From: Patescibacteria group bacterium
GTDB lineage: Bacteria; Patescibacteriota; Minisyncoccia; UBA10092
DNA: 39,010 nucleotides
Reading direction: 5' to 3'
NCBI GenBank assembly: GCA_043812515.1
Contig: JBDRMC010000007.1
Location: 1-39,010 of the forward strand
The translations under genes were made by a program, and so were the position numbers. Under the pieces are notes generated by a model. It searched no databases. It had not been told where the DNA came from and was given only the letters and a program-made list of their open reading frames with translations. This document shows, piece after piece, positions 27,328 to 31,117 of the stretch. The first letter of the stretch is position 1; each line of letters opens with the position of its first letter.

Positions 27328-27611
27328 GCAGGGAGCCAAAAAACGATGCCTCAAGGAATGCCTCAAGAGAGAAGACTTGCTTGCGCCTTGTTGATGGTGA
27401 AGTAATTCGCGTTCAGGTGGAGCGCGAAATTGGAGGATGAGTTCACCAATGGTATAGATGTCTTCCAGGAGATGTTACTTGTCGCAGTGACGGCATAACA
27501 TCGTTCCAAAGGAAAGCCAAGGTGCAAAAAAGGGCTTACCGATAAGGGGACGCCCATACCAACTTTCCTCTCCCTGCAATAAAATATTACCCCCGCTTAG
27601 CGGGGGTTTTT
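27328..27611 (+). ncRNA. Candidate structured non-coding RNA ending in an intrinsic terminator (class unknown)
   Basis: No credible ORF in any frame. Visibly more GC-rich than other intergenic DNA here. Hairpins at 27396-27447 and 27471-27502. Possible long-range pairs 27450-27455/27556-27561 and 27328-27335/27570-27577. Terminator at 27590-27611. Confidence 0.35.
27590..27611 (+). terminator. Rho-independent terminator CCCCCGC-TTA-GCGGGGG plus TTTTT
   Basis: 7-bp GC stem and T-run. The same stem-loop recurs at 31029-31043. Confidence 0.85.
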
Positions 27612-27654
27612 ATTTACAACTTTAGCCAAATTAGCTAAAGTACTTAAAACGGCT

Positions 27655-28179
27655 ATGAAAAGTAAAGAAAACAATTTTGCATACATTGATGGCGCTAACC
27701 TACATAAGGGTGTAGCAGAATTAGGTTGGAAATTGGATTATAGGCGATTTCGCGTGTGGTTACGGGATAAATACAATGTTCAAAACGCATATCTTTTCAT
27801 TGGCCTTGTTCCAGACAATAAAGATCTATATACGAGCTTGCAGGAAATGGGTTATTTGCTGGTATATAAAGAAGTAACTTATGACGGCACTGGAAAAGTA
27901 AAAGGCAATTGTGACGCCGAACTAGTGCTTAAAGTTGCTGTAGATTATTATGAAAAGCAATTTAATAAAGCGGTTATTGTGGCAAGCGATGGCGATTACG
28001 CTTGTTTGGTTAAGTTCTTGAAAGAAAAGAGCGCGTTTCTATCTTTGGTTTCTCCCAGCAACAAATGTTCTTATCTTTTAAGAAAGTTAAACATTCCTAT
28101 TGTTTATTTAGATGCGAAGAAAAGTAAGTTTGATCGACAGGTTTATAACGAAAAAGCCCCCATTAAGGACAAGCCTTAA
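27655..28179 (+). CDS. NYN-domain (LabA/PIN-like) putative ribonuclease, paralog 1
   Basis: FAYIDGANL, ELGWKLDYRRFRVWL, LFIG, KGNCDAELV, ASDGDY: NYN/LabA-type motif set. Confidence 0.8.
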   Translation: MKSKENNFAYIDGANLHKGVAELGWKLDYRRFRVWLRDKYNVQNAYLFIGLVPDNKDLYTSLQEMGYLLVYKEVTYDGTGKVKGNCDAELVLKVAVDYYEKQFNKAVIVASDGDYACLVKFLKEKSAFLSLVSPSNKCSYLLRKLNIPIVYLDAKKSKFDRQVYNEKAPIKDKP

Positions 28180-28191
28180 CAGGGTCTTTTT
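28151..28191. terminator. Bidirectional hairpin overlapping the NYN-1 stop codon
   Basis: CCCATTAAGG-ACAAG-CCTTAACAGGG stem with an A-run upstream and a T-run downstream. Confidence 0.6.
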
Positions 28192-28206
28192 CATAATGAT
28201 ATTTAC

Positions 28207-28234
28207 AGTATAGCAAGCGTTTGCTAAAAGTCAA
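28207..28234 (-). promoter_or_regulatory. Conserved minus-strand promoter-like box: TTGACT, 16-nt spacer, TATACT, pointing into the NYN-1 3' end
   Basis: Both hexamers and their flanks are conserved with 28986-29013 while 7 nt of spacer differ. Confidence 0.5.
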
Positions 28235-28274
28235 CACTTATCCACAATGATAAATTTATTAAAATTCCTAAACC

Positions 28275-28352
28275 ATGCTCTCAATTTTAATAATAATCGG
28301 GGTGGTGGTTGTGGGGATTATTGTCGCCATCATCATCAATTCCGGCGAATAA
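28275..28352 (+). CDS. 25-aa hydrophobic peptide MLSILIIIGVVVVGIIVAIIINSGE
   Basis: ATG..TAA. Paralog at 29466-29546, differing by 6 synonymous and 4 conservative substitutions. A strong terminator follows. Confidence 0.55.
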   Translation: MLSILIIIGVVVVGIIVAIIINSGE

Positions 28353-28395
28353 TAACACTCCAACATTCTGCAGAATGTGAGAATGTTATTTTTTA
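28351..28395 (+). terminator. Rho-independent terminator
   Basis: AATAACA/TGTTATT outer stem, inner 16-nt perfect palindrome ACATTCTGCAGAATGT, then TTTT. Confidence 0.8.
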
Positions 28396-28434
28396 TTCTG
28401 TAGAGAATTTGTTAAAATAAAATAAAACAAAAAC

Positions 28435-28941
28435 ATAGATACAAAAGAAAACAATTACGCATTTATAGATAGCCAAAATTTAAACCTAAGCATTCGAGAA
28501 CTTGGGTGGAAACTTGATTGGCGCCGATTTCGAGTGTATCTAAAAGAAAAGTATAACGTTACAAAAGCCTTTTTATTTATTGGTTTTGTCGAGGGCAATA
28601 ATGATCTCTATAAATCACTTCAAGATGCCGGTTTTATTTGTATTTTTAAACCAACTTTAAAATATAAAGATGGAACTACAAAGGGAAATTGTGACGCGGA
28701 GTTTGTATTGCAAGCGATGATTGAGTACCCAAATTATAGAAAAGCTGTTATGGTAACCGGAGATGGAGATTTTTATTGTCTGGCAAAATATTTAATTGAA
28801 AATAAAAAACTGGAAGTCATTGTCGTGCCCAACAGGGACAAATTTTCCGCCTTATTGAAATTCAAAATCTGCCGTCCATTTCTTCGATTTATGAATGATT
28901 TGAAGGATAAATTGGAGTATAAAAAAGAAAAGACCCTATAA
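28435..28941 (+). CDS. NYN-domain paralog 2 without a canonical start codon at the homologous position (possible pseudogene or non-canonical start). The track's GTG at 28534 would remove the N-terminal IDxxNL motif.
   Basis: The frame is open from 28426 and reads ..IDTKENNYAFIDSQNLNLSIRELGWKLDWRRFRV, aligned to the paralog 1 N-terminus. There is no in-frame ATG/GTG/TTG before 28534. ATA at 28435 sits where paralog 1 has its ATG. Confidence 0.7.
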   Translation: MDTKENNYAFIDSQNLNLSIRELGWKLDWRRFRVYLKEKYNVTKAFLFIGFVEGNNDLYKSLQDAGFICIFKPTLKYKDGTTKGNCDAEFVLQAMIEYPNYRKAVMVTGDGDFYCLAKYLIENKKLEVIVVPNRDKFSALLKFKICRPFLRFMNDLKDKLEYKKEKTL

Positions 28942-28968
28942 GGACAAAACCTTATAGGGGGATCTTTT
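28921..28968. terminator. Bidirectional hairpin overlapping the NYN-2 stop codon
   Basis: CCCTATAAGG-ACAAAA-CCTTATAGGG perfect 10-bp stem with an A-rich run upstream and TTTT downstream. Confidence 0.65.
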
Positions 28969-28985
28969 CCGTTGGTGATATTTGC

Positions 28986-29013
28986 AGTATAGCAGATATT
29001 CGCTAAAAGTCAA
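28986..29013 (-). promoter_or_regulatory. Second copy of the minus-strand TTGACT, 16-nt spacer, TATACT box
   Basis: Same geometry and same distance from the hairpin as 28207-28234. Confidence 0.5.
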
Positions 29014-29054
29014 CACTTATTCACAGGTCGGGGGTCATTATAAAAAATAAATTT

Positions 29055-29453
29055 ATGGAAAATTATAAGGGCGTAATAATTGAAGAAAGTTTAGAAAATA
29101 AAGACGTTTTAAAAGAGGTTAAGATTTTAGAAACTGAGGTTGAGCCGGTGACTAGCGAGCATGAAACTCCTTGGCTTAAACAGTGGACTTTGCATACTGT
29201 AGAAATTTCTGAAGATAATGCGGAGGCGATTGCCGAAAAAATAAGCCATGCGCTAGATAGGGGACATGGCGCTTCTTGGTATGCGGATTTTAAAAATAAT
29301 GAAACGCATTTTATAATTTTCCGCGATAAAGTTTTTAAGATAGATAGAAAAAGTAAAGAACAATACGACAAAGCGAAAGAATATGGAATTTCTTTAGGAA
29401 TTCCCGAGCATCAAGTTGATTTTCATCCGGATATTAAAGAATGGGAAAGATAA
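29055..29453 (+). CDS. Hypothetical acidic protein (132 aa)
   Basis: Clean ORF between the conserved box and the second peptide gene. No family recognised. Confidence 0.6.
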   Translation: MENYKGVIIEESLENKDVLKEVKILETEVEPVTSEHETPWLKQWTLHTVEISEDNAEAIAEKISHALDRGHGASWYADFKNNETHFIIFRDKVFKIDRKSKEQYDKAKEYGISLGIPEHQVDFHPDIKEWER

Positions 29454-29465
29454 AACCCCTAAACC

Positions 29466-29546
29466 ATGCTCTCAATTTTAATAATAATCGGGGTGGTGGT
29501 TGTTGGGGTTATTGTGGGTATAATTGTTAATTCTGGAGATAAATAA
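29466..29546 (+). CDS. 26-aa hydrophobic peptide MLSILIIIGVVVVGVIVGIIVNSGDK
   Basis: Paralog of 28275-28352. The identical upstream CCTAAACC and first 38 coding nt are shared. Confidence 0.55.
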   Translation: MLSILIIIGVVVVGVIVGIIVNSGDK

Positions 29547-29550
29547 AAGG

Positions 29551-29559
29551 TGGTATAAT
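29551..29559 (+). promoter_or_regulatory. Extended -10 TGGTATAAT
   Basis: Exact recurring motif, 36 nt upstream of the ATG at 29595. Confidence 0.45.
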
Positions 29560-29594
29560 AAACTCAAGAATGGGGATTATAATTAAAAAAATTT

Positions 29595-30803: not shown

Positions 30804-31028
30804 ATGTATAATGTTGTTTTCAGAACCAACCTAAGGTCTAGTACTTTTAATGCGGTTACTTGGGTGCCATTTATAGACAAAAAAAATTTTGATGAGCAAT
30901 ACAGCGAGAAAATGCAAAAATTACACAAGGTAATAGAGCAGAATAGTTCTAAAGAACGCGCGGTTGAACTGTGCTCAACTGCGGGTATAAATTTAGTTAT
31001 TGTGGCATACAAGTTGAGAGAACCTTAA
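30804..31028 (+). CDS. Hypothetical protein (74 aa)
   Basis: Shine-Dalgarno GGAGGTGA 4 nt upstream. A terminator follows immediately. Confidence 0.6.
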   Translation: MYNVVFRTNLRSSTFNAVTWVPFIDKKNFDEQYSEKMQKLHKVIEQNSSKERAVELCSTAGINLVIVAYKLREP

Positions 31029-31050
31029 CCCCGCTTAGCGGGGTTTGTTG
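31029..31050 (+). terminator. Rho-independent terminator CCCCGC-TTA-GCGGGG plus a T-rich tail
   Basis: Same stem-loop as 27590-27606. Confidence 0.75.
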
Positions 31051-31071
31051 TTTACGTTAAATTAGTTAAAG

Positions 31072-31080
31072 TGGTATAAT
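31072..31080 (+). promoter_or_regulatory. Extended -10 TGGTATAAT
   Basis: Exact motif 38 nt upstream of the ATG at 31118. Confidence 0.45.
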
Positions 31081-31117
31081 AAAAAAGTTGGAATTATTAT
31101 AAATTAATTAAAATTTT

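Follow-up and report, generated by a model that had tools for sequence, protein, structure and literature searches.

A Predicted Convergent Small RNA Gene Conserved beside NYN Nuclease Genes of Patescibacteria: a Candidate Type-I-Toxin-Antitoxin-Like Module

Two neighboring nuclease genes of the NYN family in a patescibacterial genome are each followed by the same hairpin and the same short conserved box of noncoding DNA, which raises the question of what is encoded behind their stop codons. Both lie in a stretch of 39,010 nucleotides (nt) from Patescibacteria group bacterium (Patescibacteriota; Minisyncoccia; UBA10092; assembly GCA_043812515.1, contig JBDRMC010000007.1, positions 1 to 39,010), here called the window, which is chromosomal (pheS, gyrB, gatB, dnaE, dnaG, mgsA, and bipA are encoded in the 39 kb). 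An earlier reading made from the letters alone (the sequence-only reading) had described a duplicated four-part cassette at 27655-29546, composed of nuclease, hairpin over the stop codon, box, and tiny hydrophobic peptide, with an open reading frame (ORF) of 132 amino acids (aa) inserted in copy 2, and the two NYN paralogs, the hairpins, the boxes, the peptides, and the 132-aa ORF were all found where it had placed them. Here, we report that each copy is a two-gene module rather than a four-part cassette, with the NYN gene on the plus strand and a predicted small RNA (sRNA) gene converging on it from the minus strand. We propose, with moderate confidence, that the module resembles a type I toxin-antitoxin system, in which an NYN RNase would be kept low by a cis-antisense sRNA.

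Approximately 3,000 relatives of the NYN protein were found (E ≤ 1e-5), and every named one belonged to the Patescibacteria, or Candidate Phyla Radiation (CPR). The NYN-anchored set consisted of 80 genomic loci from many CPR classes, which were the best matches to the query; ~205 loci were fetched in total (labeled L001, L002, etc.). The sRNA alignment was made in the minus-strand sense, and 79 elements were measured; a covariance model (R1) was built from this alignment and calibrated, with 500 shuffles and slid controls used for covariation.

The box was conserved between the two copies, as had been claimed (28197-28246 versus 28976-29025, 86% identity over 50 nt), and the noncoding pieces were better conserved than the full two-copy alignment, whose mean column identity of 67% comes mostly from NYN coding DNA and includes unalignable flanks. 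A consensus scan found TTGACT-16-TGcTATACT on the minus strand of both boxes (10/12 matches plus the TG extension). The sRNA-1 promoter (28207..28234, minus strand) has a −35 hexamer TTGACT at 28234-28229, a 16-nt spacer, and an extended −10 TGcTATACT at 28215-28207, and the sRNA-2 promoter (28986..29013, minus strand) is built identically, so named from the consensus match: the core of the box is a near-consensus minus-strand sigma-70 promoter, as predicted by the scan, aimed at the hairpin. Across the measured elements, the −35 read TTGAC[AT] in 71/79, the spacer was 16-17 nt long in 69/79, and the −10 was TG extended in 55/79. The end of the −10 lay 12-13 nt from A[CT]GAAAAAGACCC in 66/79, a spacing that would place the start site at the conserved AUCAC, near 28200-28202 for sRNA-1. 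Within the promoter spacer, a palindrome with arms of 6-7 bp was seen in the window (28213-28228) and in L030, L043, L050, L059, and L074 (e.g., TAGCAAgcgtTTGCTA and ACCAGCCctgGCTGGT), its sequence varying by locus while palindromy was kept; it may serve as an operator in a minority of loci. A general operator role was rejected, as the enrichment was modest (arms of ≥6 nt in 6% versus 2% of shuffles).

Beyond the −35 of sRNA-1 by 3 nt lies the 9-mer TTATCCACA (28238..28246, no strand assigned), which we take to be a DnaA box by the established consensus and thus a candidate DnaA site; copy 2 has a DnaA-box-like 9-mer, TTATTCACA, with one mismatch to the consensus (29017..29025, no strand assigned). 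The copy at 28238-28246 was the sole exact one in the 39-kb window. In either orientation, an exact box occurred ≤45 nt upstream of the −35 in 16/80 elements, or in 33/80 (41%) when one mismatch was allowed, and L202, one of the two closest relatives, also had one. Further exact copies numbered 17 in 468 kb of fetched sequence, which amounts to an enrichment of ~100-fold at the element. By these counts, the motif is frequent at the sRNA promoter, not universal, and it suggests that sRNA output, and hence release of the nuclease, may follow DnaA and replication status. An origin of replication (oriC) was rejected, because the 39 kb contain a lone exact DnaA box and boxes are not clustered.

From 5′ to 3′, the predicted sRNA-1 (~52 nt; 28148..28202, minus strand) would comprise a tail (AUAUCAUUAUG), an A-tract, an 11-bp hairpin running from 28184 to 28158, and a U-tract; its antisense overlap covers the final ~30 nt of NYN1 together with the terminator of that gene. 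The predicted sRNA-2 (~58 nt; 28919..28979, minus strand) has its hairpin from 28959 to 28934 and is antisense to the 3′ end and stop codon of NYN2. The two hairpins (28158-28184 and 28934-28959) include the NYN stop codons and are flanked by A-runs and T-runs; the minimum free energies of the RNAs were −23.2 kcal/mol (z, −5.8) for sRNA-1 and −23.0 kcal/mol (z, −5.6) for sRNA-2. A terminator scan recognized both hairpins as minus-strand terminators with a U-tract, that of copy 1 on the minus strand only. Because promoter and terminator hairpin are both on the minus strand, box and hairpin form a single transcription unit, which is one minus-strand sRNA gene with a predicted transcript of ~50-55 nt that converges on the NYN 3′ end. 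The box, counted as a separate part by the sequence-only reading, is in this arrangement the opposite-strand promoter of the same gene that contains the hairpin. Nearly everywhere in the 80 loci, the element 3′ of NYN had the form AAAGAAAAAGCCCCC-stem-GGAC…-stem′-AAGGGTCTTTTTCGTAGTGAT, followed by the reverse-strand promoter. A coding function of the sRNA was rejected, since AUG was present only in a subset (ACG in the majority) and no stop codon preceded the terminator. Searches of Rfam 15 returned nothing at the gathering score and chance-level matches only at E ≤ 10.

An 18-bp structure was supported by covariation among 79 homologs (97.1% of cells paired, 11 pairs changing on both sides, 153 compensatory cells), at values that none of the 500 shuffles matched, and the slid controls were 48-68% paired; the A- and U-tract columns were paired in 98.9% of cells. 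With its GC-rich stem between an A-tract and a T-tract, the hairpin has the form of a bidirectional intrinsic terminator, in agreement with the sequence-only reading. Read as minus-strand RNA, the core hairpin was 96.0% paired with 150 G·U pairs, versus 79.5% with 7 G·U pairs as plus strand, and the A/U-tract helix had 49 G·U pairs on the minus versus 3 on the plus strand. The minus-strand hairpin was the more stable in 71/78 loci, and R1 found exactly two copies in the window, with minus-strand scores of 62.3 and 49.1 bits and plus-strand scores of 33 and 25.7 bits. The G·U bias therefore indicates that the selected structure is the minus-strand RNA.

Of 78 loci, 27 had the NYN stop codon before the hairpin, 37 had it inside, and 14 had it after, and this, with the covarying stem, upheld the earlier proposal that the hairpin is selected as nucleic acid and not as protein. 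The NYN ORF reaches into or past the sRNA hairpin in 51/78 loci, both window copies included; in NYN1, the overlap is translated as residues 164-174 (…EKAPIKDKP). Because the position of the stop varies relative to the hairpin, C-terminal tails such as EKAPxxDxTP would be incidental translation of the RNA gene. NYN and sRNA converge on a common two-way terminator, and the sRNA would therefore have perfect complementarity to the NYN message at its 3′ end, in a region that often takes in the last codons.

The convergent sRNA was found by nhmmer at 172/172 NYN1-type and 19/25 NYN2-type genes in all fetched loci. On inspection, the six misses (NYN identity, 24-61%) had the same layout in diverged sequence, with a hairpin and then a reverse-strand TTGACA promoter, and two of the six had a DnaA box. 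The same promoter and RNA occurred even beside NYN paralogs of 24-31% identity (~200 Patescibacteria loci, essentially every homolog), and the GGAC/GUCC junction was kept in 30%-identical paralogs whose stem sequence differed. All-against-all ORF clustering of the 80 loci yielded no conserved protein neighbor; only NYN recurred. By these comparisons, conservation across Patescibacteria extends to the predicted promoter, the predicted RNA structure, and the linkage to NYN alike.

Loss of the two genes was unequal. When metagenomes were scanned by the sRNA pattern alone, 95 of 111 usable matches had a convergent NYN gene, and promoter and sRNA were retained in 15/16 of the matches that had none, several of these 15 adjoining recognizable NYN fragments. 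Orphan sRNA genes with intact promoters stood beside short NYN remnants in L099, L132, L144, L150, L196, L113, and others (one remnant reads …NNYAFIDGAN… fused to …KKAPDADETA), and in L001, L050, and L074 NYN carried nonsense codons while the sRNA was intact. Decay was one-way in both the NYN-anchored and the metagenome loci, NYN being lost while the sRNA persisted; the reverse was not seen in either. Deletions, nonsense codons, and the ATG-to-ATA change in NYN2 (see below) make up an asymmetric decay that is as expected for a toxin and its antitoxin.

In the two closest relatives of the window locus (L202 and L205; NYN 93% and 87% identical), the sRNA is present and the second NYN gene is absent. 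Tandem or clustered NYN paralogs were found elsewhere (L013, L045, L062, L071, and L171); modules of subtype 1 and subtype 2 stand side by side also in L071 (3497-3660), L171 (6218-6750), and L013, and in L171 the subtype-1 NYN gene has been replaced, with its sRNA left directly upstream of the subtype-2 NYN gene. A phage-borne module was rejected, as the sRNA pattern gave one match in 2.9 million viral contigs, a chance GC-rich terminator without a promoter. By eye, the flanks of L002, L009, L010, and L015 contained accessory or defense-looking genes next to some modules (restriction specificity subunit, Bro-N/antirepressor-like, DUF4065-like, and XRE regulator).

NYN1 (27655..28179, plus strand) encodes a 174-aa NYN-domain nuclease, the candidate toxin, and NYN2 (28435..28941, plus strand) encodes a 168-aa paralog of the second subtype; the two are 49% identical across 144 aa. 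Profile searches confirmed the family of both, at 43.8 bits (NYN1) and 46.6 bits (NYN2) against PF01936, for which the Pfam gathering score is 24.2; NCBIfam gave no NYN match, and in PADLOC the only match was a weak one, to a generic model named “NYN”. Residues D12, N15, D87, D112, and D114 were invariant in 16 sequences, both window copies included, so the catalytic Asp residues, whose absence would have counted against the sequence-only reading, were intact, and the acidic residues align with the same motifs of the Protein Data Bank (PDB) entry 2QIP. An AlphaFold 2 model of NYN1 had a predicted local distance difference test (pLDDT) score of 85.8, with a disordered C-terminal tail (<50). Foldseek with this model gave 2QIP (VPA0982) as the best PDB match (template modeling [TM] scores, 0.75/0.80), followed by the NYN domain of MARF1 (TM, ~0.6/0.69), so the modeled NYN1 has a PIN-like/NYN fold. 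From the invariant catalytic Asp residues and the fold match of the model to 2QIP and the MARF1 NYN RNase, the NYN protein looks active. In a comprehensive classification of the PIN superfamily, bacterial PF01936 proteins are listed as without known function (PMC5499597).

NYN2 has no ATG, GTG, or TTG at its N terminus. Its frame opens at an ATA (28435), 12 nt 3′ of an in-frame stop, which aligns with the start of its homologs, and subtype-2 homologs (L171, L198, L188, L083, L167, and others) have ATG at this position. A canonical start was present in 71/72 NYN genes, the window NYN2 being the sole exception; its next in-frame canonical start is a GTG at 28534, use of which would drop the catalytic IDxxN motif. 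NYN2 is thus probably attenuated or inactivated through its ATA start; the change resembles either the knock-down of a toxin-like gene at its start codon or an assembly error.

Across the loci, NYN promoters were weak, heterogeneous, or undetectable in the promoter scan. The candidate NYN1 promoter (27613..27641, plus strand) is a weak TTTACA-17-TAAAGT (9/12, no TG; consensus scan). In L004, L028, L030, L042, L060, L073, L076, and L079, a −10 box, mostly TG extended, ends 6-8 nt before the NYN start, which suggests leaderless NYN mRNAs in these eight loci; other loci had no recognizable NYN promoter upstream. Against these stand the near-consensus sRNA promoters (71/79), consensus match being a mere proxy for strength.

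Under the type-I-like reading, the strong promoter would yield sRNA in excess, and this sRNA would base pair with the hairpin that closes the NYN mRNA at its 3′ end. Cutting of the resulting duplex, presumably by RNase III, would then deprive the NYN mRNA of its protective 3′ end; a potentially harmful NYN RNase would thus be held low, with the sRNA as a type-I-antitoxin-like repressor. Two hallmarks of type I systems are present in predicted form, namely, an antitoxin encoded by a separate small RNA gene, complete with promoter and terminator (the transcript being predicted), and complementarity of that antitoxin to the toxin mRNA, given here by the cis-encoded overlap. A published review describes antitoxin RNAs that are transcribed convergently and pair with toxin mRNAs at the 3′ end, with cleavage by RNase III and a stronger antitoxin promoter (PMC8167048).

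Several points weigh against this reading. The small (<60 aa), hydrophobic toxin typical of type I is replaced by a soluble nuclease of 168-174 aa (SymE and RalR are nuclease exceptions among type I toxins [PMC8167048]), and NYN identity of 55-80% between distant CPR classes is unusually high for a toxin. The loop GU was invariant in 76-77/79 elements, and CCC/GGGGG and the 5′ tail were also kept; primary sequence conservation exceeds what pure cis-antisense pairing needs and hints at recognition by a protein. In RNAduplex calculations, the sRNA 5′ tail showed no preference for the NYN translation start (−5.9 kcal/mol, versus −7.0 kcal/mol for internal windows). A translation block in the style of Fst/RNA II was rejected for this reason, as the tail pairs no better with the translation start than with internal windows, and decay mediated by the 3′ end would be the sole mechanism left. 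Finally, the NYN-anchored loci, as the best 80 matches, are biased toward the NYN subfamily closest to the query.

The conserved unpaired positions would also fit the chief rival explanation, one that we consider rather unlikely, in which the sRNA would be a direct partner of the NYN protein, in place of or besides antisense repression. NYN would recognize the loop …GU, the GUCC junction, and the CCC/GGGGG base, and the RNA would either inhibit it, in a type III-like manner, or be its cofactor or substrate. This would account for unpaired positions conserved across phyla (A20 besides the loop GU and 5′ tail), for the survival of the GGAC/GUCC junction in the 30%-identical paralogs with other stem sequences, and for the universal linkage of RNA and protein. 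Part of that sequence conservation is, however, explained by what a two-way terminator needs (GC-rich base, A- and U-tracts), and orphan sRNAs outlive the loss of NYN with promoter and structure intact, whereas a pure cofactor should decay too. In type III systems of the ToxIN type, an endoribonuclease toxin is neutralized by an RNA that is encoded adjacent to it. The RNA of those systems consists of tandem repeats, located upstream of the toxin on the same strand and processed by the toxin, whereas the module here has no repeat array and a single convergent hairpin RNA that lies downstream and has its own predicted promoter. Type III systems are listed in the review already cited (PMC8167048).

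A tentative and, in our estimate, doubtful extension of the protein-partner explanation is an obligate RNA-protein system specific to Patescibacteria, in which loop GU and GUCC would be the NYN recognition site, the promoter would be controlled by DnaA, and RNA decay would be gated by replication status. The DnaA box suggests such a coupling of replication status to RNA decay in organisms that need a host to grow. Were the extension true, these ultrasmall host-dependent bacteria would possess an RNA-controlled RNase switch of a new class or else a toxin-antitoxin system of a new type.

We rate as improbable that the short RNA is functionless and that the convergent promoter affects NYN in one of three other ways (transcriptional interference, a roadblock, or antisense transcription that reads through the gene), with the hairpin as no more than a shared terminator. 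Such a role would fit a strong promoter facing NYN at 12-13 nt from the terminator, and A- and U-tracts are typical of bidirectional terminators. Set against it are the G·U skew to the minus strand (150 versus 7), the invariant loop GU, and the fixed spacing from promoter to hairpin, which together argue for selection on the minus-strand RNA itself; it also leaves the survival of orphan sRNAs after NYN loss unexplained.

The four-part functional cassette of the sequence-only reading, with the peptide as membrane toxin or immunity factor, is very improbable, and the locus comparisons largely refute it. It had in its favor that a peptide gene follows both window copies in the same order (peptide 1, 25 aa, 28275..28352; peptide 2, 26 aa, 29466..29546; both plus strand) and that substitutions between the two are of the coding type (6 synonymous changes and 4 conservative replacements). 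Among the 80 elements, no other locus had a comparable small hydrophobic ORF ≤900 nt away, the peptide and the 132-aa ORF were absent beside NYN in L202 and L205, no peptide homolog was found in the ~205 fetched loci, and in copy 2 the unrelated 132-aa gene splits the peptide from the box. The earlier suggestion that box, hairpin, and peptide might accompany NYN in relatives therefore held for box and hairpin and failed for the peptide. The weakest explanation, that DnaA box and hairpin act at the DNA level and not through an RNA, as a site of replication, recombination, or DnaA titration, could invoke the ~100-fold enrichment of the 9-mer beside the element and the tolerance of single-stranded DNA hairpins for G·T pairs, yet is highly improbable, given a lone box without a cluster (one exact box per 39-kb window), its presence in only 41% of loci even with one mismatch, and a near-consensus promoter at fixed distance that it leaves unexplained.

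The type-I-like reading has several partial precedents. In phage lambda, the short OOP RNA is antisense to the 3′ end of the convergent cII gene and causes RNase III-dependent decay of its mRNA. That pair, which lacks homology to the NYN-sRNA module, belongs to a phage regulatory circuit and acts on a transcription factor rather than a nuclease. The par locus of pAD1 (fst RNA I/RNA II) is alike in its convergent promoters and in a shared bidirectional terminator that gives complementarity (PMC7472228). Its toxin is a 33-aa membrane peptide, and RNA II pairs with 5′ direct repeats and blocks the ribosome, whereas the NYN-sRNA module shows no 5′ pairing and its candidate toxin is the 174-aa NYN nuclease. 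In Bacillus subtilis, txpA/RatA and bsrG/SR4 provide precedents for the proposed repression through the 3′ end, the RatA duplex being cleaved by RNase III and the SR4 promoter being 6-10-fold stronger (both PMC8167048). These two differ in having peptide toxins, longer overlaps, and a location in prophage/skin elements, without RNA or protein homology to the present module, in which the overlap of ~45 nt is the terminator itself. SymE/SymR and RalR/RalA of Escherichia coli likewise place a nuclease toxin under a cis-encoded antisense sRNA (PMC8167048). Their folds are unrelated to NYN, SymR overlaps the 5′ untranslated region, and symE is under LexA/SOS, whereas here the overlap is at the 3′ end and the nearby motif is a DnaA box. 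LabA-like NYN proteins (PF01936/COG1432; VPA0982, 2QIP) and the NYN domain of MARF1 share domain, fold, and acidic active-site residues with the window proteins; the bacterial members are without a described RNA partner (PMC5499597), and MARF1 is eukaryotic and multidomain. Overall, the module would work like a type I toxin-antitoxin system, without the typical peptide toxin and without homology to known members.

The sequence-only reading knew of no described system with this architecture, and our searches of the literature and Rfam agreed, finding no Rfam family and no paper describing an NYN-sRNA module; nor did they find an earlier conserved regulatory sRNA in CPR/Patescibacteria. The sRNA family is cleanly defined by its predicted promoter, start site, structure, and terminator and is tied to one nuclease family across the superphylum, and R1 can now be used to annotate it. 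A bacterial PF01936 nuclease thereby gains a proposed role, that of an antisense-controlled, toxin-like RNase. The module is also carried, on BTXY01000003.1 near 68.05-68.10 kb (L060, 3494-3547), by “Candidatus Microsyncoccus archaeolyticus” PMX.50, which grows in enrichment culture and for which metatranscriptomes exist (PMC10936435).

The remaining features of the accessory stretch lie outside the conserved module. Over 96 nt, the peptide regions (28260-28355 and 29451-29546) were 84% identical; the two ORFs agreed at each of their first 38 nt, which no shuffle matched, and later differences were mostly at third codon positions, a codon pattern that suggests purifying selection. The peptide gene probably encodes a genuine small membrane protein, but its distribution is local. 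A TAAAAT box lies 9 nt upstream of the peptide 1 ATG, and the peptide 1 mRNA may be leaderless; peptide 1 is followed by a palindromic, terminator-like inverted repeat (28348..28393, no strand assigned). No antisense promoter was conserved between the two peptide copies, for which scans gave only weak, nonmatching results.

The 132-aa ORF (29055..29453, plus strand) is a local insertion, with the sRNA-2 promoter on one side and peptide 2, at a distance of 12 nt, on the other. Profile searches, which had recognized both NYN proteins, returned no match to it in Pfam, NCBIfam, or PADLOC. Its family comprised 539 cluster representatives at E ≤ 1e-3 and 38 at E ≤ 1e-30, often as one domain in proteins of 160-300 aa, an unannotated domain family, and ORF clustering in the 80 loci gave no link to NYN. 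Judged by these comparisons, the module is unrelated to its neighbors here, namely, the peptide genes and the 132-aa ORF, which are local to this genome.

Direct repeats of 31 nt (87% identical; 27587-27617 and 31025-31055), each with a terminator hairpin (CCCCGCTTAGCGGGG), bracket exactly a 3.4-kb accessory block that contains the two NYN modules and the peptides along with four small hypothetical genes. The window has only these two copies, and the other 205 loci have none; the repeats may delimit an inserted segment. A repeated GGTGGTATAATAAA motif (extended −10) at 29547-29562 and 31068-31083, ~35 nt upstream of two small-protein genes, provides an example of a typical strong promoter in the source genome.

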